From assembly GCA_046299515.1 (NCBI GenBank), contig JBKBID010000003.1, positions 42,345 to 106,344 on the forward strand: a stretch of 64,000 bases of DNA. The letters run 5' to 3'. A program made the position numbers and the translations under genes. This stretch comes from Thermoflexales bacterium. Its GTDB lineage: Bacteria > Chloroflexota > Anaerolineae > J036 > Brachytrichaceae. Numbering within the stretch: the first letter of the stretch is position 1; the number at the start of each line of letters is the position of its first letter. This document shows, in pieces, positions 8,773 through 29,235 of the stretch. The notes below the pieces were generated by a model, which saw only the letters and a program-made list of their open reading frames with translations, was not told where the DNA came from and did no database searches.

Positions 8773-8785
8773 ATAAGGGACGCCG

Positions 8786-8938: not shown

Positions 8939-10093
8939 CTATCGCCGGCGCAGGAAAGAAGGAAGCTCCAGGTTATCGGGATCGAACTGAGAAGCGCGGG
9001 CCAGCGAAGGCTCGGCCTCGCTGCGCGATGCGTCTGTGTTGAGCGAGGACGACGCATACCTGGCCGCGGCTGTCCGCATTGCTGCGCTGCTCGAGCGGAT
9101 CATCCGGTACGGCGCATTGCCCTGATGGTCGAAGCCGGTGGCGATCACCGTGATGCGCACTTGATCTTTCATATTTTCGTCCACAACCGCGCCAAAGATC
9201 ACATTGCAGTCGGGGTGCGCTGCCGACTTGATGATCATGGCTGCCTCGTTCACCTCAAACAGGCTGAGATCCGGGCCGCCGGTGATGTTGAACAGAATGC
9301 CGCGCGCGCCGTCAATGGTTACATCCAACAGGTTGGACGTAATCGCTTGCTCGGCCGCCGCGCGCGCCCGCCCCTCGCCGCTGGCCGTGCCCACCGCCAT
9401 GAGCGCGGCGCCGCCCTCGGACATGATAGTGCGCACGTCCGCAAAGTCGAGGTTGATCAGCCCTGGGACGGTGATCACCTCACTGATGCCCTGGATGCCC
9501 TGACGCAACACATCATCGGCCGTGCGGAAGGCCTGTTGAAGGGTGGCCTTCTGGCCGACGATGTCCAGCAAGCGGTCGTTGGGGATTACGATCAACGTGT
9601 CCACGTGTTCTTTGAGCCGCTCGATGCCGGCCTCAGCCGTGCGCATGCGCGGCGTCCCCTCAAACGAGAAGGGCTTGGTCACCACGCCGATGGTGAGCGC
9701 GTTCAGCTCTTTGGCGATGCGCGCGATGACGGGCGCGGCGCCGGTGCCCGTGCCGCCGCCCATGCCGCATGTGATGAAGACCATGTCGGCGCCCTTGAGC
9801 AAGCTGTAAATCTCATCGGCTGACTCCTCCGCGGCTTTCTCGCCAATTTCGGCGTTGCTCCCCGCGCCTAGCCCGCGCGTCACCTTCTCGCCGATGCGCA
9901 CGCGAATCGGCGCATGGCTGAGCATCAGCGCTTGCTGGTCGGTGTTGACGGCGATGAACTCAATGCCGGCGAGGCCCTCGGCGATCATCCGATTGACCGC
10001 ATTTTGGCCGCCGCCGCCGACGCCGACGACTTTGATTTGAGCAGGTGACTCAGCACGCATGCCCGTCAAATACTCTTCTGGTTGCATGTTCAT
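8939..10093 (-). CDS. ftsZ: Cell division protein FtsZ
   Basis: [19 protein letters not shown] tubulin signature, NLDFAD, C-terminal [10 protein letters not shown]; start placed after GGAGGA SD. Confidence 0.98.
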
Positions 10094-10142: not shown

Positions 10143-10194
10143 TAGTTCACAGATTCTATGCTGCTTATCCACAGTGTCAAGCGGTTTATCCACA
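10143..10194 (-). promoter_or_regulatory. ftsZ-proximal sigma70-like promoter bracketed by DnaA boxes
   Basis: TTGACA (10175-10180), 16 bp, TAGAAT (10153-10158); perfect TTATCCACA at 10165-10173 and 10186-10194; degenerate box at 10143-10151. Confidence 0.85.
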
Positions 10195-11551: not shown

Positions 11552-11632
11552 GATTGCGAGAGCGAGAATCTGAGCTAAGCGTCTGCAATTCGGAACTTGC
11601 CACCAGCCTTTCGCTTATCGTCCGGCCGCGTC

Positions 11633-12415
11633 TCATCTTATGTAGTACGGCGCCTCCACGAAACGCACATCCAACACTCGCGCTTCGACGCCCTTATCCA
11701 CCAATTGCTTTTGCAACGCGCGCGCCAGGCGCAACTTGTCGCTCATCGCGCCGTCATAGGGCGCGTCACCCAGCCGAACGCGCCATTTGCGGTCGTTGAC
11801 CCACATTAGGCCGAACTGCGACGAGTATGAATAGCGCGTCACGTTCGGCTGCGCAGCGATCAGCTCGTTCAGGGCGCGCAACAGACGCGGGTCAAGCCGG
11901 CTGCCCAACGGCGGCAACGCGTCATCCTCGACGCGGATGAAGAGACGAGCCGGCATGTTCTCCCGCGCGACTTGCACCCTGCCCTCAAAGTCGTTCCACA
12001 CGTTACCGCCCTTGCCTTGCCACAGCGCCATCGGTCGCGCCGGCTGGACGGTGATCACGCACCGAACGCGCCACTCCCAGCGACACGTGACCAACGCCGC
12101 TTCCACACCCGGCAGCTCATCCACGGCTTTAGCCGCCGCGTCCAAGTCGGCGAAGTGAAAGTGCTCGCCCTGTAGCCCGCTCGCGCCGATGATCGCTTCA
12201 ACCGGCACGCCGTCGTTGTTCTGCACTTCGATGTCGCCGACGCGCCAGCTCTCGCCGCCATACCACTGCGCGCCGAGCATCGCGCCGGCGATGCACACGG
12301 CGGCGACAAACACCCGCGACCAGCGCGCTTGGCGCCGCTCGGCGCGCTGCGCCAGCGCCACATCGAAGCGCGTCCGCGACGCCGGCCTGCGATCGCGCTG
12401 CGGTCGGTAGTTCAT
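11633..12415 (-). CDS. ftsQ: Cell division protein FtsQ/DivIB
   Basis: Basic N-terminus, one TM helix, POTRA-like region, C-terminal LDVRFVEAPYYIR; position ddl-ftsQ-ftsA; SD before ATG 12415. Confidence 0.85.
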   Translation of the reverse strand: MNYRPQRDRRPASRTRFDVALAQRAERRQARWSRVFVAAVCIAGAMLGAQWYGGESWRVGDIEVQNNDGVPVEAIIGASGLQGEHFHFADLDAAAKAVDELPGVEAALVTCRWEWRVRCVITVQPARPMALWQGKGGNVWNDFEGRVQVARENMPARLFIRVEDDALPPLGSRLDPRLLRALNELIAAQPNVTRYSYSSQFGLMWVNDRKWRVRLGDAPYDGAMSDKLRLARALQKQLVDKGVEARVLDVRFVEAPYYIR

Positions 12416-12423
12416 CGCCTCCC

Positions 12424-14401: not shown

Positions 14402-14436
14402 AAAACACCTGGCGATGTATGGGCCGGCGCTGCGCC

Positions 14437-15852
14437 TTACTTCGACAACATCTCGAGCAACCGCTCCCCCACCTGGTTGCCATCCCCGGCGCTGAGCGTG
14501 ATGACCACGTCGCCGCCCTTCACCTGCGCGATCAGCATGCCCAACGCATCGCCGAACGAGGCCGCGTTGCGCGCGTCGCGATGACGGATCTTGCGCGCGA
14601 TCTCGATCGGATTGAGCGCATTCGCGACGAAGCCGAAATCCTCCTTGCGCTCGCGCGCCGCGTAAATCGGCAGCACGATCACGTGGTCGGCGTCGTCGAA
14701 GGCCTCGGCAAACGCATCGAGGAGCGCAGCGGTGCGGCTGTAGGTGTGCGGCTGCCAGATCGCCCAGATGTTGCCCAGCGGATAGCGCTGGCGCGCGCCG
14801 CGCAACGTCGCTTTGATCTCGGTCGGATGATGCGCGTAATCGTCGAAGATGCGCACGCCGCGCGCCTCGCCCTTCAGCTCAAAGCGCCGGCCGGCGCCCC
14901 TGTAGCCGCCGAGCGACTTGACCGCTTCGCCCATCGGCACGCCGCAGGCGTCGGCCACGACCAGCGCCGCCAGCGCATTTAGCACGTTGTGTTCACCCGG
15001 CACGCGCAGCGAACACACCCCACGCACTTCGCCGTTGATCCCTGCGCCGCTGAACGAGAAGTCCACGCCGCCCAGCGCGTTCGCGCGCAGGTTGGACGCG
15101 CGCCACATGCCGCCCTGGATGCCGTAGTCCACGACGACAGGGGCGGGCGCGCCATGCGCGGACAGGTCGGCGCGCTTGAGCATGGCCACGCAACCGGGGT
15201 CGTCGGCGCAGGTGATCACTACGCCGTCTTTGGGCACGCTCCGCGCGAATGTTGCGAAAGCGTTTAACGTCGCATTGAGATCCGCAAATGTGTCGGGATG
15301 GTCATACTCAACGTTGGTCACCACGGCGACCTTCGGTTGGAAGTGCAGGAAGGTGTGGTCGTACTCGTCGGCCTCGACGATGAACGCCTCGCCCGCGCCC
15401 CAGCGCGCGTTCACGCCCAGCGGCTGCGGCGTCGCCCCGATGACGAACGACGGGTCCAGTCCGGCATCGGTCAGGATCGTCGCGATCATGCCGGTCGTCG
15501 TGCTCTTGCCGTGTGTGCCCGCGACGGCGATGCCCACTTTGTCCTGCATCAAGGCGCCGATCAAGTCGCCGCGATGCCACACCGGGATGCCGCGCCGTTG
15601 CGCTTCGACCAGCTCCGGCTCATCTTTGGCGATCGCCGACGATGGCGCAAGGATGTCCACCCCTTCGAGATGGCGCGGATCATGGCCGACGACGACCGGG
15701 ACGCCTTCGGCCTGCAGCGCCCTGAGCGTCGGCGAATCGGCGCGGTCGTCGCCGCTGACGCGCACCCCGCGCGCACGCAGCAGCCGGGCCAGCGCGCTCA
15801 TGCCGGCCCCGCCGACGCCCATGATGTGGATGTGTTTATCGAGCCAACTCAT
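14437..15852 (-). CDS. murC: UDP-N-acetylmuramate-L-alanine ligase
   Basis: GVGGAGMS, AGTHGKSTTT, EADEYD, DDYAHHPTEI, WQPHTYSRT. Confidence 0.97.
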   Translation of the reverse strand: MSWLDKHIHIMGVGGAGMSALARLLRARGVRVSGDDRADSPTLRALQAEGVPVVVGHDPRHLEGVDILAPSSAIAKDEPELVEAQRRGIPVWHRGDLIGALMQDKVGIAVAGTHGKSTTTGMIATILTDAGLDPSFVIGATPQPLGVNARWGAGEAFIVEADEYDHTFLHFQPKVAVVTNVEYDHPDTFADLNATLNAFATFARSVPKDGVVITCADDPGCVAMLKRADLSAHGAPAPVVVDYGIQGGMWRASNLRANALGGVDFSFSGAGINGEVRGVCSLRVPGEHNVLNALAALVVADACGVPMGEAVKSLGGYRGAGRRFELKGEARGVRIFDDYAHHPTEIKATLRGARQRYPLGNIWAIWQPHTYSRTAALLDAFAEAFDDADHVIVLPIYAARERKEDFGFVANALNPIEIARKIRHRDARNAASFGDALGMLIAQVKGGDVVITLSAGDGNQVGERLLEMLSK

Positions 15853-16382
15853 ACGAGCACCACGATGACAAACAGAAAGATGACAATCAGCACGAAGACC
15901 AGCAACGAGCCGCTGAAGATGACCGGCGCCCCGCTCTTGATGAAAAAGAACTCGTTCCAACCTCCTGGCGGCGGCGTGAAGAGATTGGCATATTGCCCGT
16001 CCAGCAAGCCGGCTTGTAGCGCCCAGAACGCCAGCGCGCTGAACAACAAATAACCGTTGAACATGCCAACCAGGAACGACAGCAAGCCGTACTCGAAGCG
16101 ATTCGCAGCGTTGACCTGAAAGCGACTGCGCGCGACGATTGGGCTGAGATAGCCAAAGAACACAATCAGCAAAAAAGGCGTGGCGCGCCAGAAGAAGCGC
16201 CAGACCGGGTCTTCATTCGCCCACAGCGGGTTCATGATGTTGGTGAACTGCGGCAGCGAATAGATGAACAGCGCAAACAACATGGTGAAGGTGACGATCA
16301 CCTCGCGCACCCAACCGCGCGAGGTGCCGATAAACCCCCACACGACGAGATAGAAGACGAAGAAGATGTCGGCGTTGATCAT
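15849..16382 (-). CDS. CvpA-like multi-pass membrane protein inside the dcw cluster
   Basis: GFIGTSRGWVREVIV resembles the CvpA G..RG..RE motif; 4-5 hydrophobic segments; abuts murG and overlaps murC start. Confidence 0.6.
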   Translation of the reverse strand: MINADIFFVFYLVVWGFIGTSRGWVREVIVTFTMLFALFIYSLPQFTNIMNPLWANEDPVWRFFWRATPFLLIVFFGYLSPIVARSRFQVNAANRFEYGLLSFLVGMFNGYLLFSALAFWALQAGLLDGQYANLFTPPPGGWNEFFFIKSGAPVIFSGSLLVFVLIVIFLFVIVVLV

Positions 16383-16383
16383 G

Positions 16384-17565
16384 TCAATGGCTATGGCTCG
16401 CTTCAACCAGCAAGGCCGCGATCTGCGCCGCGCCATCGCGCCGGCCCAGTCGCAAGGACGCCTGGCGCATCGCGTTCAGGCGCTCCGGCGCGCCGAGCAG
16501 CGCGATGACGCGCGGCAGCAGACCTTCTTGCTCATCCATGAGCGCCCCATCTTCGACCACCACGGCAGCCCCCCGGTCGGCGAGGTATTGAGCATTGACC
16601 TGCTGATAACGCCATGCGTAGGGATACGGCGCCAGGATAGCCGGCAGGCCGAGGTAGGGCAGCTCGCCCAGCGCGCTCGCGCCGGCGCGGCAGACCGCCA
16701 GATCCGCCGCAGCCATCGCCAGCGCCATCTCGTCATGCAGATATTCAAAGGCCAGATAACGCGCGCGCTGCCCTTCCGGCAACTGCGCGCGCGCGGCGCT
16801 CACCTCCGCCCAGTCGTTCGCGCCGGTGACGTGCAAGACGACGGCGACCTCCAGCAAGCGCGCAAGCACGGCCAGCACGGCGCGATTGATGCTGCGCGCG
16901 CCCTTGCTGCCGCCATACACCAACAACACGCGTTCGTCCGGCGCGATGCCGAAGCGTTGGCGCGCCTCTTCGCGCGAGACCGCCGCGAAGACTTCGCGCA
17001 CCGGGTAGCCGGTGACCACCATCTTGTCCGGCGTGATGAAGCGCGCGGATGCCTCCGTCGTCGTCGCCACTCTCACGGCGAAGCGCGCCATGACCCGCAA
17101 CGCCTGGCCGGGTTCAATGTCCGGCAAATACACCACGCTGGGTATGCGCTGTAGCCATGCCGCTAAGCTCACCGGCACGCCGACGAAACCGCCGGTCAGG
17201 AACACCACGTTCGGCTTGAATTCGGCAAGGATGCGCCGCGCCTCGACCATGCCGCGCAACGTGCGCAGCGCGCCGCCGACGGCGCGCGCCGGCCCGACGC
17301 CGTGCATGGCGCCGGCCTGGATCGCCCGAAAAGATACGCCCTCGCGGCTCACCAGACTACGTTCCATGCCACTTGCCTCGCCAACGAACAGCGCCTGGAC
17401 TGCGCCGGCCGTTGCGCCCGCGGAGCGCGCCGCCGATGCGAACGTCGCGCCCGATGATGAGGACATCGGCGGATTCGGCCTCAGCTGCGCTTCCAGCGCT
17501 TTGAGCACGGTGAGCGCGGGCAAAACGTGTCCGGCTGTGCCCCCGGCGGATAGTAGAACTCGCAC
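16384..17565 (-). CDS. murG: Lipid II GlcNAc transferase MurG
   Basis: AGGTAGHV.P, GGFV, GGSKGA, CRAGAS, QQVNA; GTG start behind AAGGAGG (alternative ATG 17589). Confidence 0.96.
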   Translation of the reverse strand: MRVLLSAGGTAGHVLPALTVLKALEAQLRPNPPMSSSSGATFASAARSAGATAGAVQALFVGEASGMERSLVSREGVSFRAIQAGAMHGVGPARAVGGALRTLRGMVEARRILAEFKPNVVFLTGGFVGVPVSLAAWLQRIPSVVYLPDIEPGQALRVMARFAVRVATTTEASARFITPDKMVVTGYPVREVFAAVSREEARQRFGIAPDERVLLVYGGSKGARSINRAVLAVLARLLEVAVVLHVTGANDWAEVSAARAQLPEGQRARYLAFEYLHDEMALAMAAADLAVCRAGASALGELPYLGLPAILAPYPYAWRYQQVNAQYLADRGAAVVVEDGALMDEQEGLLPRVIALLGAPERLNAMRQASLRLGRRDGAAQIAALLVEASHSH

Positions 17566-18772
17566 GAACTGCCCTGCCTCCTTTTGCATGGCTGGCTGCG
17601 ACGGACAGCCCAGCCTCTATCTCCCTTCCCTTCAACATGCGGCTGCCGCGCGCGACGCTGGTCACCACGCCGCAGGCGATGAGCAACGAGACGAGCGACG
17701 ACCCGCCGAAGCTCAGGAAAGGCACCGGCACGCCGGTAAAAGGAATGATCGCCATGATCGCCATCACGTTGAGCAACATCTGGCCGATCACCCAGATCAC
17801 CACGCCGATCACGATGAACGAGCCGAATGCGGTATCGGCTGTCTGCGCGATGCGCAACCCGCGCCACGCGAAAATAACGAATAACCCCAACGTGATCGCT
17901 AATCCCAGCAGCCCCATCTCGTCGCCCAGCACGGCCATCACGCTGTCGGTGTGCGGCGTCGGCAAATAGCCAAACTTCTGGCCGCCGGCGCCGATGCCGT
18001 TGCCGAACAAGCCGCCGCCGCCCAGCGTGATCAGCGTTTGGCGGATGTGATAATCCATCTCGCTCGGCGCCCGCCAAACTTTGATGAACTCGTTCACCCG
18101 GACGGCGGCGTGCGGGACGACGGTGACCAAGACCAAGAAGGCCGATACGGCGATCAACATCACCAGGCCCAGTTGCTGCCAGCTCGCCCCGGCCATGAAA
18201 AACATCGCCATCGCCACAATCACGATCACAGCGGTCGTGCTGAGATCGGGCTGGACGACGATGAGGAAGCTCACTGCGCCGACGATCACGCCAAACGGCA
18301 TCAGGCCGTTGGACAGGCTCCGCACCTGATCGCGACGCGAGGCTAACCAGGCCGCCGCGTAGATGATCACGCCGAGCTTGACCAGCTCGCTCGGCTGCAC
18401 CGAGCCGTTCAGCAGCGTCCGGCGCGCGCCGAACACGTCGTCGCCGAATAAGAGGACGGCGATGAGCGCGGCCAGACACCCGGCCATGATCCATACGGCA
18501 AAGCGCCGGAGGATGCCGTAGTCGAGCCAACTGAAGAACACAAGCCCGACCAGGCCGACGCCGGCGTAGAGCAACTGCCGGCTGAAGATGGTCAGCGGAT
18601 TGCCCTCCTTCACCTGCGACCAGAAGAAGGTTGTGCTGTAGGCCATGACGAGGCCCAGCGCCGTCAGCAGCAGCACCGCGCCGATGAAGACCCAGTCGGC
18701 GCCCCGGCGCGCGGCTGCCGGCGCGCCGGCCCGCCCGCTCGAGGATCGCCCTCGCTGCACAGTTCGCATCAT
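17357..18772 (-). CDS. ftsW: Peptidoglycan polymerase FtsW with long C-terminal tail
   Basis: GARR, QPSELVK, QPDLS, YHIRQ, PHTDSV.AV.G.E.G, GVPVPFLSFGGSS. Confidence 0.95.
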   Translation of the reverse strand: MMRTVQRGRSSSGRAGAPAAARRGADWVFIGAVLLLTALGLVMAYSTTFFWSQVKEGNPLTIFSRQLLYAGVGLVGLVFFSWLDYGILRRFAVWIMAGCLAALIAVLLFGDDVFGARRTLLNGSVQPSELVKLGVIIYAAAWLASRRDQVRSLSNGLMPFGVIVGAVSFLIVVQPDLSTTAVIVIVAMAMFFMAGASWQQLGLVMLIAVSAFLVLVTVVPHAAVRVNEFIKVWRAPSEMDYHIRQTLITLGGGGLFGNGIGAGGQKFGYLPTPHTDSVMAVLGDEMGLLGLAITLGLFVIFAWRGLRIAQTADTAFGSFIVIGVVIWVIGQMLLNVMAIMAIIPFTGVPVPFLSFGGSSLVSLLIACGVVTSVARGSRMLKGREIEAGLSVAASHAKGGRAVRASSTIRRGHSRTRFARAHRAQSAGSAAEAESADVLIIGRDVRIGGALRGRNGRRSPGAVRWRGKWHGT

Positions 18773-18812
18773 CGAGCCTTTGTCCGCCACATCAACTCCT
18801 GAAGATTCGCGC

Positions 18813-20267
18813 TTATCCGCCCGCCGCCCGCGACGCCGGCAATGCCTCCACCCATTCGCGGAAGCGCTCGCCGCGCTCGGCGAAATCCTTGAATGCGTCG
18901 TAGCTCGTCCCGCCGGGCGAGAGCAGCACCACATCACCCGGTCGGGCCAGCCGGTGCGCTTCGGCCACTGCCTCTTCCAGCGAATCACATAGCGACCATC
19001 GAAAGGAGGGCCGACTCATCCTCTTCGCCTCATCGCTCAACCTTTCGGCGACCATCGGCCCCATTTCGCCGAATAGCACGACGGCCTTACAGCGCTCCAG
19101 CATCATGCGCGCGGCTTCGTCCCAGGGCAGATGCTTGTCGCGCCCGCCGCACAACAAGATCACCGGCTGATCGAAGCAGCGCAGGGCGGCCATCAGCCGC
19201 TCCGGCGCGGTGGCGATGGAATCGTCATACCAGCGCACACCGTCGCGCTCGGCGACGAGTTGCAGGCGGTGCGCAACGCCGCGAAAGGTCGTCGCGACGC
19301 GGCGCATGGCTTCGACCGGCGCGCCGGCTGCTGCGCAGGCCGCCGCCGCCGCCAGGACGTTCGCGATGTTGTGCTCGCCCATCAGCAGCAGCTCGCGGCG
19401 GTGACAGATCACCGCGTCTATGCGCGATTGGCTATCGCCGACCGGCGATTCGTCGGTGCGATCCACCCGAACGCGCAAATAGCCGGCCGCGTCCATCCAT
19501 GCGCCGTCGCCGCGCGGCTCGCTCCGCGTGCTGAACCACAGCGCGCGCGCCGACGCATTCAGGCCGGCCGTCACCGCGTTATCCGCCGAAAGCACCCGCC
19601 AGTCGCCGGGCGATTGGAAGTCGAGGATGCGCCGCTTGGCGGCAATATAGGCCTCCATCGTGCCGTGCCGGTCAAGGTGGTTCGGCGTGATGTTGGTCAC
19701 GCAGGCGATGTGCGGGCTGCGCGTCATCAGCTCGAGTTGAAACGAGGACAACTCCATCACCACCCAGTCCTCCGGGCGGATGCGTTCGAGATCGCCGATG
19801 AGCGGGTTGCCGATGTTGCCGCCGACCCACACAGATCGAGCACGCGCGGGGCTTTCCGCCGCCGCTTGGGCGCTGAGCTTCAAAATCTCGCCGATGAGGG
19901 TCGTGGTAGTGGTTTTGCCGGCCGAGCCGGTGACGCCGATGATGCGCGCCGGGCAAGCCTCAAAGAAGACCTGCGCATCATTGCTGAGCCGAATGCCGCG
20001 CCGACGGGCCTCTTGGACGATGGGCAAATCGCTTGGCACGCCGCCGCTCAGGCAGAGCACATCACAACCGTCGAGCAGCGTCAACGGATGGCCGCCGAGC
20101 GCGAAGTCCACGCCGGGCAAATCCGCCAGCAGTCGCAGGTCGAGCTGTTCGCGCGGCTTGAGGTCGCTCAGCGTCACGCGCGCGCCATGCGCGACGAGGT
20201 AGCGCGCCAGCGCCGTCCCCTGTCGCGCAATTCCCAGAATCACCGCTCGCTTGCCTGCCCAGTCCAT
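18813..20267 (-). CDS. murD: UDP-MurNAc-L-Ala-D-glutamate ligase
   Basis: GIARQG, GSAGKTTTT, ELSSFQL, PNHLDRH, HRLQLV, DDSIAT, LSPGGTSYDAF.DF.ERG. Confidence 0.97.
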   Translation of the reverse strand: MDWAGKRAVILGIARQGTALARYLVAHGARVTLSDLKPREQLDLRLLADLPGVDFALGGHPLTLLDGCDVLCLSGGVPSDLPIVQEARRRGIRLSNDAQVFFEACPARIIGVTGSAGKTTTTTLIGEILKLSAQAAAESPARARSVWVGGNIGNPLIGDLERIRPEDWVVMELSSFQLELMTRSPHIACVTNITPNHLDRHGTMEAYIAAKRRILDFQSPGDWRVLSADNAVTAGLNASARALWFSTRSEPRGDGAWMDAAGYLRVRVDRTDESPVGDSQSRIDAVICHRRELLLMGEHNIANVLAAAAACAAAGAPVEAMRRVATTFRGVAHRLQLVAERDGVRWYDDSIATAPERLMAALRCFDQPVILLCGGRDKHLPWDEAARMMLERCKAVVLFGEMGPMVAERLSDEAKRMSRPSFRWSLCDSLEEAVAEAHRLARPGDVVLLSPGGTSYDAFKDFAERGERFREWVEALPASRAAGG

Positions 20268-20312
20268 CTCGCCGAACCTTCCCATTCTGTGCTTCCCTGC
20301 CCTCCGGCGCGC

Positions 20313-21473
20313 TCACATCGCCGGGTTGCCGAAGGTGGCCAACCCTATGCCGATCATGCCGAAGAACAGCGCGATCACGAAGAAGCGTTGCACGATCTGC
20401 GGCTCGCTCCAGCCGATCAATTCAAAGTGATGGTGCAGCGGCGCCATTCTGAAGAAGCGCTTACCCTCGCCGAACCGGCGTCGGGTGTATTTGAAATACG
20501 CGGTCTGAATGATGACGCTCAGCACCTCGGCTACCGGGATGATGGCGATGATCGGCAGCAGCAGCCACTGGCCGGTCATCAATGCGACTACCCCCAGCGT
20601 CGCTCCGAGCGCCTCGCTGCCCAGGTCGCCCATGATCATCTGCGCCGGATGAACGTTGAACCATAAAAAGCCGAGCATTGCGCCCACCAGCACCATGCAC
20701 AACATCGTCAAGAACACCTGGCCCTGCATGTAGGCGATCACGCCATAGGCCACGAAGGCCACGCCGCTGATCAAGGTCGCCAGCCCGTCCAGGCCATCGG
20801 TGAAGTTCACCGCGTTGGCGCTGCCGTGGATGACGAAGACGGCAAACGGTATCCAAAACACGCCCAGGTCTATCGGGTCAGGGATGCCGGGGACGGCCAT
20901 CTTGCTGATGCCGAACAGCGGCCGGTCGGGGATGAGCGTGATGCCGGTTGCGGCGAGCGTGAACGACGGAGCCAGGTTCATCACCACGGCCGCTGCCAGC
21001 GCGATAAGCAACTGGAACAGCGCCTTGCTGCGCCCGCGCATCCCCTCGCCGCGCCGGACGCCGCGCACGCCCATGTAATCGTCAATAGCGCCCAGGATGG
21101 CGAAGCTCAGCATGACGAACATGGGGATGGCCAGCGAGCGGCCGACCAGCACCACGCCGGCGAAGTTCGGATTGACGCGCACGGCGATGCGCGAATACAG
21201 ATACATGGCCAGGATCAGCGCCAACGTCACGCCGACGAACAGGACGCCGCCCATCGTAGGCGTGCCCATCTTCACGTAGTGGCTGGCCGGGCCTTCGATG
21301 CGGATCTGCTTGCCGATGCGCAGATACTTGAGCATTCGAATCAACGGTCGCCCAAACAGAACGGCGATCATGAAGGCGACGCCGCCCATCAGCAAACAAA
21401 CACCCATTTCGGGTGGCGAAGGGGTATGCATAGTATCGAATGTTCGATGCCGCATGCGCTGTCGCATCGGCAT
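20313..21473 (-). CDS. mraY: Phospho-MurNAc-pentapeptide transferase
   Basis: KMGTPTMGG, GAIDDY, NAVNFTDGLDGL, MGDLGS, MAPLHHHFEL; start after GAGGAGG SD (exact start uncertain). Confidence 0.96.
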   Translation of the reverse strand: MPMRQRMRHRTFDTMHTPSPPEMGVCLLMGGVAFMIAVLFGRPLIRMLKYLRIGKQIRIEGPASHYVKMGTPTMGGVLFVGVTLALILAMYLYSRIAVRVNPNFAGVVLVGRSLAIPMFVMLSFAILGAIDDYMGVRGVRRGEGMRGRSKALFQLLIALAAAVVMNLAPSFTLAATGITLIPDRPLFGISKMAVPGIPDPIDLGVFWIPFAVFVIHGSANAVNFTDGLDGLATLISGVAFVAYGVIAYMQGQVFLTMLCMVLVGAMLGFLWFNVHPAQMIMGDLGSEALGATLGVVALMTGQWLLLPIIAIIPVAEVLSVIIQTAYFKYTRRRFGEGKRFFRMAPLHHHFELIGWSEPQIVQRFFVIALFFGMIGIGLATFGNPAM

Positions 21474-21483
21474 CCGTTCCTCC

Positions 21484-22938
21484 TCAAGCTCCATTTGCGA
21501 GTCCCCCAAGACCGGCGACGATCTCCTCCATTCGCATGCTGCGCGAGCCTTTCACCAGGATCACGCACTGCTCGCGCACGATGGCGTTCAACACCTCCAG
21601 GGCCTCGCCGTTCGTCATGACGTGAAAGACGCGCTCCGGCGGCATGCCGCACTCGACCGCCGCCCGGCACGTCCATCGCGCGCGTTCGCCCACGCCGATC
21701 ACATACTGCGCCACCAGCGCAGCCCGGCAGCCTACTTCATCGTGCGCCTGCCTTTCCATGTCGCCGAGTTCGAGCATGTCGCCCAAAACGGCAATGCGCG
21801 GGCCGTTGCCTTCGATCTCGGCGAGCAAGTTAAGGGCTGCGAGGGTGGATTCGGGGCTGGCGTTGTAGGTGTCGTCCAACACAATCGAGTTGAACGGCCC
21901 TTTGGCCGTCACCAGCCGCAACTGCGCCGGCGGCGCGCGCAGGGCTTCGACGATCTCGACCAGGTCCATGCCTTCGATCAGCCCAACCGCCGCCGCACGC
22001 AGCGCCGTTTGCACGCTATGCCGGCCGATCAACGGCAGTTTCGCCAGTTGACGCTCGCGGCCGTAGTGCAGCGTGAAAGAGATGCCGTTGAGGCCGAAGC
22101 TCTCGATGCTGCTGGCCCACACGTGCGCGCGGGGCGTCAACCCGTACGTGACCACGCGCGCGGCAGTCAAGGCAGCCATGCCGCGCACGCGCTCGTCGTC
22201 GTCGTTCAGGACGGCCACGCCGCCCAGCTCGGCGGACGGCAGCGCCGCCGGCAGCTCCGACTTGGCCTTGACGATGTTCTCGATCGCGCCCAGGCGCTCC
22301 AGATGCACCGGCGCGACGATCGTGACCACGCCGACCTGTGGCCTGGCCCACCGGCAGTAGGCGGCAATCTCGCCCAGCGCATACATGCCCATCTCGATCA
22401 CGGCGCGTTCGTGCTCCGGTCGCAGTTTGAGCAGGGTGAGCGGCACGCCGATCTCGTTGTTGTAGTTGCCCTCGCTCTTGAGCGTGCAGTAGCGCGCGCT
22501 CAGCACTTGGGCGATCAGCTCCTTCGTCGTGGTCTTGCCGATGCTTCCGGTGACGCCGATCACGCGCAGGTTGAACTTCGCCCGCCAGTAGGCCGACAGG
22601 CGCTGCAGAGCAGTCAGCGTGTCATCCACGCGGATGAGCACAGGCAACGTCAAATCAGGGGTCTCCGCGACGGCCGGATGCCGAGCATCCAGCCGCCCAG
22701 TCGCCAGACCCTCCAAGTTGGGCACGCGATCGTGATGCACCAGCGCCGCCAGCGCCCCACGGCCGAACGCATGGCCGACGTAGTCGTGGCCGTCCCGCTG
22801 CTCGCCGGGCAACGCGACGAATAGATCGCCGCGCAGCGCCTGCCGCGAATCTATGACCACGTTCTGGATGGGATGCTGCGCCAACGCCTCGATGCGCCGG
22901 CCGCTCACCCCTTCGACTACGTCTGCGAGCGTCAACAT
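21484..22938 (-). CDS. murF: UDP-MurNAc-tripeptide-D-Ala-D-Ala ligase
   Basis: IDSR...DLFVAL.GE..DGH, TGSIGKTTTK, NYNNEIG, DDTYNASP, LGDMLELG, KGSRSMRME. Confidence 0.96.
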   Translation of the reverse strand: MLTLADVVEGVSGRRIEALAQHPIQNVVIDSRQALRGDLFVALPGEQRDGHDYVGHAFGRGALAALVHHDRVPNLEGLATGRLDARHPAVAETPDLTLPVLIRVDDTLTALQRLSAYWRAKFNLRVIGVTGSIGKTTTKELIAQVLSARYCTLKSEGNYNNEIGVPLTLLKLRPEHERAVIEMGMYALGEIAAYCRWARPQVGVVTIVAPVHLERLGAIENIVKAKSELPAALPSAELGGVAVLNDDDERVRGMAALTAARVVTYGLTPRAHVWASSIESFGLNGISFTLHYGRERQLAKLPLIGRHSVQTALRAAAVGLIEGMDLVEIVEALRAPPAQLRLVTAKGPFNSIVLDDTYNASPESTLAALNLLAEIEGNGPRIAVLGDMLELGDMERQAHDEVGCRAALVAQYVIGVGERARWTCRAAVECGMPPERVFHVMTNGEALEVLNAIVREQCVILVKGSRSMRMEEIVAGLGGLANGA

Positions 22939-22943
22939 GGATT

Positions 22944-23020
22944 CAGAAGCCAGAAGCCAGAGGCCAGAGGCCAGAAGCCAGAGGCCAGAGGCCAGAAGCC
23001 AGATGTTAGATGTCAGAATC
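22944..23020. repeat. Tandem heptamer array (CAGARGC)x8 plus 3 degenerate units
   Basis: cagaagc cagaagc cagaggc cagaggc cagaagc cagaggc cagaggc cagaagc cagatgt tagatgt cagaatc, starting 5 nt upstream of the murF ATG. Confidence 0.95.
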
Positions 23021-23083
23021 CACAACCCATAAGATTCAAGCCAATTGGTATCAATCGCGAACTCATCTTTACTCAATTCCCGA

Positions 23084-23122
23084 TTTTCAATCTCAATCCA
23101 CGGTCTTTTCAATCTCAATCCA
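23084..23122. repeat. 17-bp direct repeat TTTTCAATCTCAATCCA x2
   Basis: Copies at 23084-23100 and 23106-23122; the second overlaps the ftsI stop codon. Confidence 0.9.
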
Positions 23123-24818
23123 TAGTCGGTGGGATGCCCAGGATCTGGCAGGCGCGCTCGGCGACGTCGTGAAAGACCGGCACCGTCGTCGGCGCTGACC
23201 ACTTCGAGCTCTGCGGCTGATCGAGCTTCACTAGAATCGTGATGCGCGGATCGTCGGCGGGCAAGAAGCCCACATACGTCACGATGGTCGTCTCCTGCTT
23301 AACGCCGTTCAGATACCAATCGGCCGTGCCGGTCTTGCCGGCGACCGGATAGCCTTTGATCAACGCCTTGGGCGTGCCGCGCCGCGTTGCGTTCGTCATC
23401 ACCCGGCGCAACGTGCGCGCCGTCTGCGCCGAAATGACGCGCGCCACCGGCACAGGCTGCTTGCGGACGATCTCGCCGTTCGTCGCGCGCCACTGTTGCA
23501 CAACGTACGGCTGCATCAACACCCCGTCGTTGGCGATGACGTTGATGGCGTTGATCACCTGGTAGGGCGTGGCCATCAGGCCCTGGCCGTAACTGTTGGT
23601 CGCCAGGTCGGCGCGCGACCATTCGGGATCGGACGGCGTGCGCAGCACGCCGCTCGCCTCATTGCCCAGATCAATACCGGTGCGATGTCCGAAGCCGAAC
23701 AAGCGGAATCGCCGGTAGAACGCCTCCGCGCCCATATCCAGGGCAATCTGCGCCGTTGGCACATTCAACGAGTTCGCCAGGATGTCCTCGATATTCACCC
23801 GCCCGTAACGCCTGCGGTCGGAGTTGTAGATGCGCTTGTTGTGGATAACCAGCCGGCCGGTATCGGTGAGGATCGTCTGTGGGGTGACCTGACCCAGCTC
23901 CAACGCCGCAGCGATGGTGAGCACCTTCAAAACCGAGCCCGGCTCATATGCGTCGCTCACGGCGGGATCGCGCAGCAGCCGGGCGTCGGGCGTGCCGGCC
24001 AGTTCAATCGCGCGATTCGGGTCGTACCCCGGCCATGACGCCGAAGCCAAGACGGCACCGGTCTTAGTCTCCAACACGATAATCGTGCCGCCGCTCGCGC
24101 CTGTGTCCTGAATCGCCTGCGCCAGCCGCGCCTCAACGTAGGTCTGCAAGGTGAGATCGAGCGTAAGCACCAGGTCGGCGCCGCTGCGCGTAGGGGTGAT
24201 CACGAGCAGCTCTAGCCGACTGCGCTCTCTGCGCTGGCCGACCGGGGAGCTGAGCTGAGCATCGTAGTAGGCTTCCACGCCTGAGTAGCCCACCGGTTGC
24301 AAGCTGACGAAGCCGAGCGTCGGCCCCGCGATCGGGCCGTAAAGATACGCGCGCGCCCAGGTCTCGTCCACCAGCAGGCCGCCGCGCGCCAACGACTGCA
24401 TGGTTCGGGTCAATTGGTAGGTCGCCCGCGGCGAGAGGTTATAGGCGACAATCGTGCTGAGCGTAGGGGTGAGGGACTTGCGATCTTCGAGGATGGCCTC
24501 GATGCGCTGCTGCGCTTCCTCCACGCGCTTGCCGATGATCGGCGCGAGCGCCGTCGCAACCGTGGCCGTATCGGTGAGCGCGCGCGCGTCTACGCGGACG
24601 ATGTAGGCGCGATTGCTCACGGCGAGCGGGCTGCCGGTGCGGTCGAAGATCGCCCCGCGCGGCGCGAGCGTGATGCGCGTCTCGATCTGCTGGTCATGAG
24701 CAGCAGCGGCGTACTTCGGACTCTCGAAGACCTGCACCTGTATCGCCCGCGCAAACGCAACCGAGAGGGTCAGGCCGATGATGGCCGCCAGGATGCTCAG
24801 CCGTCGTGGAGATAACAT
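23115..24818 (-). CDS. ftsI: Class B penicillin-binding protein FtsI
   Basis: N-terminal TM, RG.IFDR, YEPGSVLK (SxxK), SLN (SxN), KTGTA. Confidence 0.95.
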   Translation of the reverse strand: MLSPRRLSILAAIIGLTLSVAFARAIQVQVFESPKYAAAAHDQQIETRITLAPRGAIFDRTGSPLAVSNRAYIVRVDARALTDTATVATALAPIIGKRVEEAQQRIEAILEDRKSLTPTLSTIVAYNLSPRATYQLTRTMQSLARGGLLVDETWARAYLYGPIAGPTLGFVSLQPVGYSGVEAYYDAQLSSPVGQRRERSRLELLVITPTRSGADLVLTLDLTLQTYVEARLAQAIQDTGASGGTIIVLETKTGAVLASASWPGYDPNRAIELAGTPDARLLRDPAVSDAYEPGSVLKVLTIAAALELGQVTPQTILTDTGRLVIHNKRIYNSDRRRYGRVNIEDILANSLNVPTAQIALDMGAEAFYRRFRLFGFGHRTGIDLGNEASGVLRTPSDPEWSRADLATNSYGQGLMATPYQVINAINVIANDGVLMQPYVVQQWRATNGEIVRKQPVPVARVISAQTARTLRRVMTNATRRGTPKALIKGYPVAGKTGTADWYLNGVKQETTIVTYVGFLPADDPRITILVKLDQPQSSKWSAPTTVPVFHDVAERACQILGIPPTMD

Positions 24819-24872
24819 GTGTCTTGCCCGCCTTCGTCGCGTCGTTTGTTGAGCGCAGCGCGTGTTCGCGCC

Positions 24873-25226
24873 TCATGGTTTCGCCGAATGCGTCATCGTA
24901 ATGGCCGGCGCGCCGTCCGGCGTCGTCACCAGATATTCGATTCGCTCGGCCGGCCGGAAGCCCAGGCGCCTGGCGCGGTCTTCCATTGTCCGCGGCGAGG
25001 TCGCTTCGCCGATCTCCGTCCACGTCCGGTTGATTTCGTCGGTCAGCCGAATATGTTTCGCGTCCAGCTCGTCGAGCTGTTGGTTGAGCAGCGCCGTGCG
25101 CGTGGACGCGGTCAGCCAAACCGCCATGAGCGCGACCAGGACGGCGCCGCTCACGGTTGCCATCGCAACCGCGCATCGGTCATTCACGTAGAGCGTTCGC
25201 GCCCTGCGCCACCAAGCCTGCGCCAT
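24873..25226 (-). CDS. ftsL: FtsL-like cell division protein
   Basis: One TM helix, coiled coil, SPRTMEDRARRLGF motif; between rsmH and ftsI. Confidence 0.75.
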   Translation of the reverse strand: MAQAWWRRARTLYVNDRCAVAMATVSGAVLVALMAVWLTASTRTALLNQQLDELDAKHIRLTDEINRTWTEIGEATSPRTMEDRARRLGFRPAERIEYLVTTPDGAPAITMTHSAKP

Positions 25227-25241
25227 CTCGCCTCTCCAACC

Positions 25242-26180
25242 TCAACCGACCCACTCAGCCCGCTCGCCGGCCACCCGCTCTGCCACGCGCAGCTTGGCGC
25301 TCCGCGCGCGCGGGTTGCGCGCCACCTCGGCTTCGCTCGGCCTAATCGGCTGCTTGTTCACCGGCCGGATGCGCGCCGGCCGATCTGCGCCCTCGCCGAA
25401 GCCCGGTTGAGCGACCTCGCCGCGCCATTCGCGCCGAAAGACCTCCTTGACGATCCGATCCTCCAGCGAATGAAAGGCGATCACGGCGATGCGTCCACCC
25501 GGCCGCAATAACGCGATCAACTCCGGCAACGCCCGCGCCAACCGCCGCAGTTCATCGTTCACCGCGATGCGCAGCGCCTGAAAGACCTGCGTTGCGGGAT
25601 GGATGCGCTCCGAGCGCGTCCGCGCCACGCCGGCGACGATGTCGCGCAACTGACCGGTCGTCACGACCGGCCGGGCCTGCCAAATGGCCTCGGCGACGCG
25701 TCGCGCGTTACGCACCTCGCCGTATTCGCGCAGCACCTCGGTCAAGCTTTGTATGTCCATGTGTTCGATCAACGCCCATGCCGGCTCGCCTCGCGCGCGA
25801 TCAAATCGCATATCGAGCGGGCCATCGCGCATGAACGAGAAACCGCGTTCGGCCGCGTCGAGCTGGTCCGACGACAACCCCAGATCCACCAACACGCCAT
25901 CCAGCGGCGCGAAGCCGAGCGCCCGCGCGAGCGCCGGCGCTTCGTCCAACCACGCCTGTCGCAGCGTCAATCGGTCTGCGTATGCGCCGGACAGCCGCTC
26001 ACGCGCGCGCGCGATAGCCTCGGCGTCGGCGTCCGTCGCCAGCACGCGCCCATCCGGCGCGCTGGCGTCCAGGATGCCCTTGGTGTGTCCGCCTCCGCCC
26101 AGCGTGCAATCGAGGTAGCGCCCGCCCTTCCTCGGCTGCAACGCTCGAATGACCTCGTCGAACAACACCGGCGCATGCAT
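25242..26180 (-). CDS. rsmH: 16S rRNA m4C1402 methyltransferase
   Basis: HAPVL, DCTLGGGGHT, DLGLSS.QLD..ERGFSF..DGPLDMR, FHSLEDRIVK, NPRARSAKLR. Confidence 0.98.
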   Translation of the reverse strand: MHAPVLFDEVIRALQPRKGGRYLDCTLGGGGHTKGILDASAPDGRVLATDADAEAIARARERLSGAYADRLTLRQAWLDEAPALARALGFAPLDGVLVDLGLSSDQLDAAERGFSFMRDGPLDMRFDRARGEPAWALIEHMDIQSLTEVLREYGEVRNARRVAEAIWQARPVVTTGQLRDIVAGVARTRSERIHPATQVFQALRIAVNDELRRLARALPELIALLRPGGRIAVIAFHSLEDRIVKEVFRREWRGEVAQPGFGEGADRPARIRPVNKQPIRPSEAEVARNPRARSAKLRVAERVAGERAEWVG

Positions 26181-26227
26181 GGCCTAAACCCTGTTCCCTG
26201 CAAATGTCCCACTGCTGCAGTCCAACC

Positions 26228-26656
26228 TCAAATTCCCAGACTGGCCCACGTCTCTTTCTGAGACGCATGCGCGCGCACCTCCTCAAGCGCACGCTGCCAC
26301 TCGCGCGGATTCCAGACCTCGATGAACTTGCCGACGCCGACGACGACGGCCTCGTTCGTGATCTCGGCGTATTCGCGCAACGGCTGCGGAATGACGACGC
26401 GGTTTTGCTTGTCGGGCACGGCGTCGTGCGCGTTGCTGTAGAGCATGCGCCGCAGCGTCGCCGCCTCTCGGCCCATCACCGGCAACGCGCTCACGCGCTC
26501 GAACAAAAGTTTGAACTCGTCGAGTGGATAGATCAGCAGACACTTGTCTGTTCCGGTCGTCATCACCACCCCATCGGCCAGGCGCGCGCGGAACTTGGCC
26601 GGCAGCGTCAGGCGGCTCTTCTCGTCCAGGGAATGCGTGAATTCACCGAGAAACAT
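26228..26656 (-). CDS. mraZ: Division/cell wall cluster repressor MraZ
   Basis: MFLGEF.HSLDEKSRL.LP, DKQNRVVIP, VGVG..IEVW. Confidence 0.97.
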   Translation of the reverse strand: MFLGEFTHSLDEKSRLTLPAKFRARLADGVVMTTGTDKCLLIYPLDEFKLLFERVSALPVMGREAATLRRMLYSNAHDAVPDKQNRVVIPQPLREYAEITNEAVVVGVGKFIEVWNPREWQRALEEVRAHASQKETWASLGI

Positions 26657-26700
26657 CCAAACTCTTCCACTCTATTCCATATTAACCCACTTTTTCCCAC
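26656..26700 (-). promoter_or_regulatory. MraZ operator array: five pentamers at exact 10-bp period
   Basis: Minus strand GTGGG-aaaaa-GTGGG-ttaat-ATGGA-ataga-GTGGA-agagt-TTGGA, the last running into the ATG. Confidence 0.85.
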
Positions 26701-26710
26701 TAACGCCCCT

Positions 26711-26774
26711 ATGATACTCGCAAATGGACATATCGCAACCACTTATCCACAGGCTGGGGATAAATCGTGGACAA
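26711..26774 (-). promoter_or_regulatory. mraZ/dcw promoter with upstream DnaA boxes
   Basis: TTGCGA (26733-26738), 16 bp, TATCAT (26711-26716); perfect TTATCCACA at 26743-26751, 1-mismatch box at 26755-26763, 2-mismatch box at 26766-26774. Confidence 0.75.
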
Positions 26775-26879
26775 ATTTGGATACGCGCGGACTCGGCAGC
26801 GCTCCGGCATCGAAAAGAGAGAGGCCTCAACCAACTGGTTGAAGCCTCTCTGCGCGAAATCACACCGGCGCCGGAGCGC

Positions 26880-27728
26880 TTATAGCCCGACCATCTCCGC
26901 GCTCAAATGCCACAGCTTCTCCTGCGCTTGGGCGTCATACGACGCCTGGGAGGACGGTTTGGGCTTGCAACGGTAAAAATATTTGCCGGTGACGCCGGTC
27001 ACCTCGGGCGAGGACGCCAGGTACACGCTCGTCTGTGCGCCTTCTTCTGGGCTGATGGTGAAGCGCCCAAACAGCTTGAACAACATGCCCCACACGCCGC
27101 TGTTGTTCTTTCCGAAGTCTGTCGCCACCGCGCCGGGATGCAACGCATTCACGGTGATCGCGCTGCCTTCCAGCCGGCGCGCCAGCGCGTAGGCGTGCAT
27201 CACGTTGGCCAGCTTGGATTGGCTGTATGCGCCGAACCCACTGTAGCGCCTGCGTTCAAACTGCACGTCGTCAAAGGCGATCGCCCCCATCCGGTGCGCG
27301 TCGGACGACACGTTGATCACGCGCGCCGCAGGCGCGGCCTTCAAGGCATCCATCAGCAAGTGCGTGAGCAAAAAGCAGCTCAAATGGTTGAGCGCCCAGG
27401 TCATCTCGATGCCATCTGCGCTGACCTGCCGGGCGGTGAAGATCGCGCCGGCGTTGTTCAGCAACACATCGAGGCGTGGGTAGGCATCCAGAAAGCGTCG
27501 CGCCAATGCGCGAACCTGCGACAACGACGACAGATCCGCCGGCATCGCCTGGACCTTCGGGTTGCCCGTCTGATGCCGGATTGCCTCGACAACGTCTTCG
27601 CATTTGCGGGGGTTGCGGCTGACGACGATCACCGTCGCGCCCATTTCCGCCAACCGCTGCGCGCTCACCCGGCCGATGCCGGCGGTCGCGCCTGTTACGA
27701 TGCATATCTTGTCTTGCAGATTCAACAT
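26880..27728 (-). CDS. SDR family oxidoreductase (retinol-dehydrogenase-like)
   Basis: TGATAGIG, NNAG, NVSS, YSQSK, HPG.V.T. Confidence 0.93.
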   Translation of the reverse strand: MLNLQDKICIVTGATAGIGRVSAQRLAEMGATVIVVSRNPRKCEDVVEAIRHQTGNPKVQAMPADLSSLSQVRALARRFLDAYPRLDVLLNNAGAIFTARQVSADGIEMTWALNHLSCFLLTHLLMDALKAAPAARVINVSSDAHRMGAIAFDDVQFERRRYSGFGAYSQSKLANVMHAYALARRLEGSAITVNALHPGAVATDFGKNNSGVWGMLFKLFGRFTISPEEGAQTSVYLASSPEVTGVTGKYFYRCKPKPSSQASYDAQAQEKLWHLSAEMVGL

Positions 27729-27786
27729 ACCTGGCTCGTGTAATCCCCCCAGCGCGCCAATCAGGACGAAGCGCAGGCAGAGACAT

Positions 27787-29235
27787 TCACTCCGTCAATA
27801 AGTCTTTGAAATTCGGATTGTTGCGCAGGGCGGCGAGCTCGTTCGGGTCGGTCTCGAGCCGCAGATATTCCTGCATCATCCGCCGCGCGGCGGTCATGTC
27901 GCGTCGCTCAAGATATAGCACCATCAAGTTGTAGGCGATTTCCGGATCGCGCGGGGCGACGCTGCGCGCGCGCGTCAGCGAATCGAGCGCGCCCCCCCAA
28001 TCCCCCACCTCTTTTAAGGCCAGGGCCATCGCCTTGAGCGTCTGCGCGCTCTCCCCCTCGGCGCGCAGTCGGTTGAATAACACACCGACCCGCTGGGCCG
28101 GCGTTAACCTGTCGAGGTCCACGTCCTGCCAGTTTGCGCTGGTCGGTGGCGCGGTCGGCGTCGGCGACGCAGCAGGCGCGGCCGGAGCTTCCGGCTGCGG
28201 GGCTGCGGCTTTCGCCAGCAACGCCGCAAGGTTTTCTTTGCGCACGCGCAAATCCAGATAGTTCAACGCCGTGAAGACGACGCGAAACGGCGCAAACAGC
28301 AGCGAACCGATGAAGCTCGTGGCAGTGATAGCCGCGGCGATTGCAACGAAGCCGGGCAGCATAACGGCGTCCTGGTTGATGCCGTTCGACAGCGTCCCCT
28401 GCGAGAGCGCGAACACGCCGATCAGCGCTATAGCAATCAGCACGAGCAACAGCGCGGCCGTCACGACGAATTCGAGGATGAACAAGAGGACGTAGCGCCA
28501 AAAGATGAGCCAGCGACTGCCGCGCGCTATGGCGGCGCTGCGGCTGAGGCCCTGCACGCTGCTTGCGCCCTCGCCAACGATGGCCGGCGCGCGAAAAGTC
28601 CAATTGATTGCCAGCACGACCGAGACGACCACCGCGCCGATGATGCTCGGCGCGCAAATGGCCACAACGGCAACCGCGACGATGGGCGAAACGCCGGCGA
28701 AGAAATCCGCGCCAAAGACGGCAAACGTGGGCACTGCCAGCGCCACGCCTAGGACGCCGATCAGCGCCAGATAGACGACGACGAGAGGCAGGTTAATGCC
28801 GATTTGCGCCAGGAAGTTCGCGATCCACAATGCAGCCCAATACCGGCGCGTTTGCCCGTATGAGGCGCGCACACCCAGCGCGCGTCCCAGCACCTGCTCG
28901 ATCACATTAAAGGTCAATGCACCCTCCGCCCAAGGCCACAGGATGCCCAGCAACCAGACAAACGCCACAGCGCAGCTGGCGACGACGCTCAGTCCGGCGA
29001 TTGCCACATCTGGCGTGCCACTCAGCATGAACTGCGGGTCTTGCAGTTGTAGGCCGCCCACCGCTGTAAGGATCACCGCCGCCGCGCTCAGCAGCGCGTT
29101 CAACCCAAAGATGGGCAAAAGCACAGCCGAGGTGATCGAGACGAAGGTCAGGAAGCGCCGCCGGTAAAGCCGGAATGCAAGCGCAAAAATTTCACCGGTG
29201 GAGCGCGGGCGTAATTCGACAGAGCCTATCGCCAT
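27787..29235 (-). CDS. Multi-pass membrane protein (GDPD membrane-domain-like) with Pro-rich linker and C-terminal TPR
   Basis: LRPRSTGEIFALAFRLYRRRF N-terminal motif, about 6-7 TM, Y.DLRVRKE, then TPR-like helices; -10 hexamer TATACT 7 nt upstream of ATG. Confidence 0.7.
   Translation of the reverse strand: MAIGSVELRPRSTGEIFALAFRLYRRRFLTFVSITSAVLLPIFGLNALLSAAAVILTAVGGLQLQDPQFMLSGTPDVAIAGLSVVASCAVAFVWLLGILWPWAEGALTFNVIEQVLGRALGVRASYGQTRRYWAALWIANFLAQIGINLPLVVVYLALIGVLGVALAVPTFAVFGADFFAGVSPIVAVAVVAICAPSIIGAVVVSVVLAINWTFRAPAIVGEGASSVQGLSRSAAIARGSRWLIFWRYVLLFILEFVVTAALLLVLIAIALIGVFALSQGTLSNGINQDAVMLPGFVAIAAAITATSFIGSLLFAPFRVVFTALNYLDLRVRKENLAALLAKAAAPQPEAPAAPAASPTPTAPPTSANWQDVDLDRLTPAQRVGVLFNRLRAEGESAQTLKAMALALKEVGDWGGALDSLTRARSVAPRDPEIAYNLMVLYLERRDMTAARRMMQEYLRLETDPNELAALRNNPNFKDLLTE

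Follow-up and report, generated by a model that had tools for sequence, protein, structure and literature searches.

A putative DnaA operator at the mraZ promoter of a Chloroflexota dcw cluster

The question raised by this locus is whether the replication initiator DnaA doubles as a transcription factor on division genes. A perfect DnaA box is found next to the predicted promoter of mraZ, the first gene of the dcw cluster, and further perfect boxes are found at the promoter of ftsZ, at the tail of the same cluster. From the comparisons described here we consider it likely, with a probability of roughly 0.7, that the box at 26743-26751 is a DnaA operator, making the mraZ promoter (PmraZ) a DnaA-operated promoter.

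The analysed stretch of 64,000 nucleotides (the window; contig C3:42345-106344) belongs to an assembly of 2.97 Mb in 202 contigs with 64% G+C, here labelled G000. Its genus is referred to as g1 and the closest genus as g3, and a relative with a complete genome, G009, was used for comparison. The dcw cluster spans 17.9 kb on the minus strand of the window. It starts with mraZ (26228..26656, minus strand; TIGR00242, 123 bits, against a cut-off of 98.35 bits), followed by rsmH (25242-26180), and further includes ftsI (23115-24818), ftsA (10322-11551) and ftsZ (8939..10093), all on the minus strand. No Rfam matches were found over window positions 8000-28000.

Architecture and conservation of the mraZ promoter

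The only promoter-like site predicted in the region 26560-26900 is PmraZ (26711..26738, minus strand), with a -35 hexamer TTGCGA (26738-26733) that matches four of six consensus positions, a 16-bp spacer, a -10 hexamer TATCAT (26716-26711) and a predicted start near 26704. A sequence-only reading of this DNA, which preceded the present analysis, had placed a perfect DnaA box 4 bp upstream of the -35, and this box (box A; TTATCCACA on the plus strand, TGTGGATAA on the gene strand) is indeed present at 26743..26751, with its centre at about -43; it conforms to the 9-mer definition used here (TTATCCACA or TTWTNCACA). Next to it lies box B, TTATCCCCA, with one mismatch (26755..26763, minus strand; centre about -55), inverted relative to box A across a 3-bp gap. 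Further upstream are a degenerate box TTGTCCACG with two mismatches (26766..26774, minus strand) and box C, GTATCCAAA (26776..26784, minus strand; centre about -76), 21 bp upstream of box B. In four close relatives box C has the form TTATCCAAA, which we take to be identical to E. coli R3. The boxes would lie on one helical face, as the spacings of their centres are about 12 bp (A to B) and 21 bp (B to C). A double box of the E. coli type, i.e. two boxes in the same orientation 2-3 bp apart, is absent at PmraZ, where the neighbour at 3 bp is inverted.

Downstream of the -10 hexamer, where the same reading had located an MraZ operator, four repeats (GTGGGA, GTGGGT, ATGGAA and GTGGAA) follow each other with a period of 10 bp (26665..26700, minus strand; about +5 to +40). 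With its 10-bp period and at least three direct repeats of the GTGG/TGGG type, the array lies upstream of the gene encoding MraZ, and it has no second copy in the genome. The complete order on the gene strand is GTATCCAAA-t-TTGTCCACG-at-TTATCCCCA-gcc-TGTGGATAA-gtgg-TTGCGA-16 bp-TATCAT-9 bp-GTGGGA-4-GTGGGT-4-ATGGAA-4-GTGGAA-...-ATG. The upstream gene, encoding an SDR oxidoreductase, ends in a predicted intrinsic terminator with a 15-bp stem (26818..26851, minus strand), and PmraZ would therefore be insulated from upstream transcription.

The regions upstream of mraZ were collected from 30 relatives, and the 13 carrying the box were aligned with MAFFT. All nine positions of box A are invariant in these 13 genomes, i.e. 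the 11 g1 genomes that have the locus and two g3 genomes, so that the conservation by which the earlier reading could be checked extends over two genera. Variation is seen in the 4 bp separating box A from the -35 (gtgg, gcgg, gtag, ccag, acgg), in the upstream flank and in the identity of the upstream gene. An invariant box between variable flanks, 4 bp from the only predicted -35, is as expected of a position under selection. When all 50 family genomes were searched with the pattern TGTGGATAANNNNTTGCRAT, 11 of the 12 g1 genomes and both g3 genomes had a single match each, and there were no control matches. Its only other occurrence is on a 1.5-kb contig of G434, binned in a genome of genus g11; this contig (C238, 1510 bp; locus L230) is nearly identical to the PmraZ-mraZ region of the g1 genome G006 and has probably been mis-binned.

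The accompanying boxes are less strictly kept. Box B is retained as TTATCCCCA in nine of the 11 g1 genomes and is degenerate in G004, G010 and g3. At the position of TTGTCCACG the relatives in the alignment of 13 have unrelated sequence, and this element was rejected as a conserved box; it is the adjacent GTATCCAAA/TTATCCAAA that is kept as a third element. Both inverted degenerate boxes of the earlier description thus exist, but only the first, TTATCCCCA, is conserved. The core promoter, TTGCGAT...TATSAT, is found family-wide, including genomes without the box, and conservation of the MraZ repeats that follow the -10 extends across the class. Other genera of the family keep both the core and the MraZ repeats, and no box was found there among the upstream regions of the 30 relatives. 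The presence of the core promoter in sister genera without the box suggests that the common ancestor of g1 and g3 acquired the box at a promoter that already existed, and, since this core works in those genera, that DnaA would be a modulator at most.

A different DnaA-like arrangement was observed about 60-85 bp upstream of mraZ in G035 of genus g10 (locus L024), where TAATCCACA-gg-CTATCCACT, in the opposite orientation, runs into a -35 hexamer TTGCCA. It is absent in two other g10 genomes and may represent an independent gain.

The ftsZ promoter and the rarity of perfect boxes

A single promoter, PftsZ, was predicted in the ftsA-ftsZ spacer (TTGACA-16-TAGAAT; 10153..10180, minus strand), and it agrees with the consensus at 11 of 12 positions. 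Two perfect boxes are interleaved with it. Box 1 (10186..10194, plus strand) lies 5 bp upstream of the -35 in the same orientation as box A, and box 2 (10165..10173, plus strand), 21 bp from box 1, is located inside the 16-bp spacer between the hexamers, giving the order TGTGGATAA-accgc-TTGACA-c-TGTGGATAA-gcagca-TAGAAT. The two are 12 bp apart from edge to edge and hence do not form a double box of the E. coli type; tandem boxes 2-3 bp apart are present in PftsZ of G019. The double-box layout, with at most one mismatch per box, could be identified in eight of the 11 genera of the family, and the composite PftsZ pattern was matched a single time in each of 12 out of the 16 family genomes sampled, but not in any of 385 genomes belonging to the other families of the class. 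The mraZ promoter had been described as mirroring the ftsZ arrangement, which is correct for the orientation and distance of the upstream box (4 versus 5 bp), whereas the spacer box of ftsZ has no counterpart at mraZ.

Some further elements near PftsZ were considered. About 31 bp upstream of box 1, and inverted relative to the PftsZ boxes, lies a site TTATCCGGA with two mismatches (10225-10233, minus strand). Several genomes of the genus have it as TTATCCGGG or TTATCCGAG, and it may represent a third, weak site, the counterpart of box B at mraZ. The GACAC within TTGACAC, a possible WhiA-type site, was rejected, as its extra C is not conserved across the family. The motif CTTAAAAC, shared by the regions upstream of PftsZ and dnaA, was also discarded as the site of a second regulator, with 15 matches in the genome against about 20 expected.

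The longest open reading frame of ftsZ (8939-10135) begins at a GTG at 10135, just about 11 nt past the predicted transcription start near 10146. Judging from the relatives and from the Shine-Dalgarno sequence GGAGGA, the ATG at 10093 is the probable true start, which would give a leader of about 50 nt; the GTG is an unlikely start. Directly 3' of ftsZ lies nrdR (8264-8716, minus strand), with a promoter-like site of its own (TTGACT-17-TAAAAT; 8786-8814, minus strand), and no terminator was predicted after ftsZ. An open reading frame of 1966 residues (2324-8224) comes after nrdR. Genes for division and for dNTP supply are thus neighbours here.

An exhaustive scan of the window identified exactly four perfect TTATCCACA boxes, at 10165 (plus), 10186 (plus), 23840 (minus) and 26743 (plus), all in the dcw cluster, in agreement with the number counted by eye in the sequence-only reading. 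Dinucleotide shuffles of the window contain 0.18 boxes on average, and none of 100 shuffles reached four. The whole 2.97-Mb genome has 13 perfect boxes, compared to a mononucleotide expectation of 6.27; the latter corresponds to 0.135 per 64 kb, close to the 0.13 estimated beforehand, and perfect boxes are not common genome-wide. The Poisson probability of at least four boxes within the 17.9-kb dcw cluster is about 1e-6, and that of at least three boxes within the two spacers of about 200 bp that hold the mraZ and ftsZ promoters is about 3e-10. Among the 17 perfect boxes of G009, three are at the same dcw positions, and the ftsZ pair is the sole pair less than 100 bp apart.

The fourth box of the window, inside ftsI (23840..23848, minus strand), is common only to G000 and its nearest relative G008; the corresponding position of 15 other dcw clusters is without it. 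Being unconserved, it was rejected as part of the DnaA system and is probably a chance occurrence.

DnaA as a putative regulator of both dcw promoters

The genome encodes a DnaA protein (TIGR00362, 534.9 bits). Alignment of its domain IV with 1J1V, a structure of E. coli domain IV with DNA, shows identity at R399, P423, D433, H434, T435 and H439; the PRQ arginine and the motifs LPEIG and RDHTT.LH are kept, and the base-contact residues are unchanged. The architecture of the boxes, their statistical rarity and conservation, and the canonical box-reading residues of this DnaA are thus observed, whereas binding, the sign of regulation and the cell-cycle logic are inferred. The best reading of the comparative evidence is that DnaA would serve as a transcription factor on both dcw promoters, combined at PmraZ with autoregulation by MraZ. 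Control by DnaA and MraZ at the head of the cluster and by DnaA again at its tail, as originally suggested, is thus supported by the conservation of both promoters, the MraZ array and the DnaA residues.

We propose that domain IV of DnaA would bind the perfect box A near -43, and that DnaA bound there could recruit more DnaA to boxes B (-55) and C (-76), which are weaker and in helical phase with it. Abutting the -35 hexamer, it would modulate access of RNA polymerase, with MraZ autoregulating the promoter from its four repeats at about +5 to +40. With repression, the more likely sign, a high level of free or active DnaA, before initiation or when replication is stalled, would throttle both dcw promoters; as replication proceeds and DnaA is inactivated or titrated, the promoters would be freed, so that the supply of division proteins would follow replication. 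Replication status would probably feed directly into division-gene transcription. Perfect boxes of E. coli bind both nucleotide forms of DnaA, and dependence on the cell cycle is therefore not guaranteed.

The closest precedent is from Bacillus subtilis, where DnaA binds the yllB(mraZ)-mraW-ftsL-pbpB promoter in vivo and acts negatively, with down-regulation on replication arrest (Goranov 2005, as cited in PMC2533591, PMC8203912 and bioRxiv 10.1101/2022.02.09.479790); the mraZ promoter of this species also has GTGG repeats with a 10-bp period that bind MraZ for autorepression (bioRxiv 10.1101/2022.02.09.479790). DnaA at the head promoter of the dcw or mra operon together with MraZ repeats is the same layout as here. 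The present organism differs in belonging to the Chloroflexota rather than the Bacillota, in its single perfect box, which keeps a fixed register of 4 bp to the -35 and is paired with a weak box in inverted orientation, and in having a second DnaA-boxed promoter at ftsZ; moreover, binding has been shown in Bacillus, whereas here it is predicted.

If PmraZ is operated by DnaA, we lean somewhat to repression, the sign being deduced from three points. The spacer operator in the consensus promoter PftsZ argues for occlusion, and strong core promoters whose spacer holds an operator appear typical of repressed promoters; the mra-operon precedent of B. subtilis is negative; and in sister genera the PmraZ core functions with no box.

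The opposite sign, in which DnaA binds the same boxes but activates, is less likely but a serious rival for PmraZ. At about -43 DnaA could contact sigma region 4 or the alpha-CTD and boost a weak -35, and division-gene transcription would then rise with DnaA. The -35 of PmraZ is weak indeed (TTGCGA, 4/6), and the identical position and orientation of the box relative to the -35 at two promoters suggests a stereospecific contact. The position of box A also resembles that in E. coli nrdAB, which is activated by DnaA, at low DnaA levels, and the Caulobacter ftsZ promoter, which has two DnaA boxes, is DnaA-activated as well (PMC3193534). Activation is, however, hard to reconcile with a PftsZ whose hexamers already agree with the consensus at 11 of 12 positions and whose spacer holds a box, nor does it agree with the same core promoter being present in sister genera without the box or with negative regulation in B. 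subtilis.

An improbable alternative is that the boxes are mainly non-transcriptional, forming within promoter DNA a titration sink like datA or a reactivating site like DARS. The strongest boxes of the genome are located here, the candidate oriC of G000 is without a perfect box, and the dcw cluster of G009, at a distance of about 0.4 Mb from the candidate origin, would be duplicated early. A pure sink would nevertheless leave unexplained why boxes stand in a fixed register to the -35 at two different promoters, and each site has one to three boxes, compared to the five boxes and the IHF site of datA. The opposed arrangement of boxes A and B is like that of boxes I and II of DARS (PMC6868365), but in the DARS core these are separated by a 5-bp gap and box III is in tandem with box II (PMC6868365, PMC11317965). 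Here the opposed gap is 3 bp and the third box is 12 bp away instead of 2-3 bp in tandem, and a DARS-like reading of the inverted A/B pair was rejected for this mismatch in spacing.

A variant of the DnaA-operator reading would have the dcw promoters act both as sensors and as the main high-affinity sink for DnaA, linking initiation and division-gene output in one titration loop. We regard this reading, in which DnaA would be more than a peripheral modulator, as unlikely. The best boxes of the chromosome would then be at four division, shape and wall loci and not at the origin.

It is more improbable still that the conserved 9-mer is read by another factor or kept for other reasons, e.g. as part of an UP element. 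The near-palindrome formed by A and B, TTATCCcCA-gcc-TGtGGATAA, could suit a dimeric helix-turn-helix protein, but G004, G010 and g3 have lost half-site B and still have a perfect box A, and at ftsZ the 9-mer forms direct repeats 21 bp apart, in which only single mismatches are tolerated across the family. The word is moreover an exact match to the universal DnaA consensus and occurs 13 times in the genome. Finally, the ftsI-internal box illustrates that perfect boxes do arise by chance in the cluster, but such an origin for box A is effectively refuted by its invariance in 13 genomes, by shuffles that in 0/100 cases reach four boxes and by the Poisson P of ~3e-10 for three boxes in two promoter spacers.

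Taking DnaA again as a regulator of both promoters, the arrangement can be compared with other known systems. The Caulobacter crescentus ftsZ promoter is controlled not only by DnaA but also by CtrA and other cell-cycle regulators (PMC3193534). It resembles PftsZ in having DnaA boxes at a dedicated ftsZ promoter, tying the initiator to division-gene transcription; unlike Caulobacter, one box here is inside the spacer of a consensus promoter, suggesting repression, and in the literature searched no mraZ-promoter box was found reported for Caulobacter. In E. coli nrdAB a double DnaA box, tandem and 3 bp apart, lies immediately upstream of the -35 (PMC11317965, Table 1). At PmraZ, too, the boxes abut the -35 of a sigma70 promoter from upstream, but they consist of one perfect box and an inverted box with one mismatch, and the target genes are different. 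ChIP-seq in E. coli found 13 of 32 perfect single boxes bound, with a preference for tandem pairs 2-3 bp apart (PMC11317965); PmraZ is without such a favoured tandem partner and has only the inverted one-mismatch box. E. coli, too, has DnaA boxes upstream of ftsZ within its dcw cluster, namely in ftsQA, but these were shown not to contribute to transcription of ftsZ (PMC8203912); those are in coding sequence, whereas the present ones are intergenic, conserved and interleaved with promoter hexamers. MraZ and DnaA also meet on one promoter at E. coli mioC, where the MraZ site overlaps a DnaA box (Eraso 2014, as cited in PMC4446571); at PmraZ, in contrast, the core promoter separates DnaA upstream of the -35 from MraZ downstream of the -10.

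A link between DnaA and division is thus already known in Bacillus and Caulobacter; what is added here is a case in the Chloroflexota, with boxes locked in register to the promoter and a gain that can be placed in the phylogeny. To our knowledge, cell-cycle control is unstudied in this phylum. The coupling of replication and division in bacteria is still unsettled, and its wiring is unusually explicit here: consensus boxes are register-locked to core promoters at the head and the tail of the dcw cluster, with a depth of conservation of the genus at mraZ and of the family at ftsZ. Sister genera with and without the box on the same PmraZ core provide an evolutionary series for what the box adds. 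As the organisms are uncultured, direct testing is confined to recombinant and heterologous assays.

A candidate origin and other DnaA boxes in the genome

In G000, some 8-10 boxes whose core is TCCACA or TTCACA form an array at C40:8740-8880, between Ppx/GppA-CHAD and translin-like genes. It is the only place in this genome with at least four TCCACA cores within 160 bp, and it contains no perfect box. The homologous array of G009 (C1:3162950-3163250, about 3.163 Mb; locus L231) does have a perfect box, and the sampled GC skew of G009 changes sign at 3.03-3.26 Mb. These arrays are candidates for oriC, and a candidate origin built of TCCACA-core boxes indicates that the lineage makes use of this motif family. 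As oriC, the dcw boxes themselves were rejected, since in G009 the skew is positive on both sides of the cluster, at 3.50 and 3.73 Mb, and a far denser box array exists elsewhere.

The dnaA gene of G009 is located at 4.02 Mb, about 0.86 Mb from the candidate oriC, so that the origin would not be beside dnaA. In G000 the region upstream of dnaA (C18:14201-14361; locus L097) has two TTTTGCACA sites 22 bp apart and one TTGTCCACA, and no perfect box; autoregulation of dnaA would therefore use weaker sites than those at the division genes.

The perfect boxes found to be kept in both G000 and G009, two species of the genus, are that of PmraZ, the two of PftsZ, a tandem double box in the leader of a LysM-PA14 gene and a box in the mreB-proC spacer only. 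Each of the other G009 boxes that were checked has changed at the corresponding position in G000 or aligns with nothing there, and the box at the origin is without a perfect counterpart in G000. Division, shape and wall genes are thus at the centre of the kept set. A tandem double box of G009, TTATCCACA-gca-AATCCACA (C1:2143637-2143657; locus L239), has its G000 counterpart between the ends of contigs C25 and C2, which may be an assembly gap.

The LysM-PA14 leader contains a tandem double box, ATATCCACA-agt-TTATCCACA, with CTATGCACA 21 bp further on (C1:158131-158172; locus L186). This 280-bp leader, which is unusually well conserved with 74-90% identity, lies upstream of a gene for a protein with LysM and two PA14 domains; it gave no Rfam matches, and its boxes are kept in nine genomes of the genus. 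The box between the divergent mreB and proC genes (C20:8437-8445; locus L158) abuts the ribosome-binding site of proC, and is perfect in six genomes of the genus and has one mismatch in three more.
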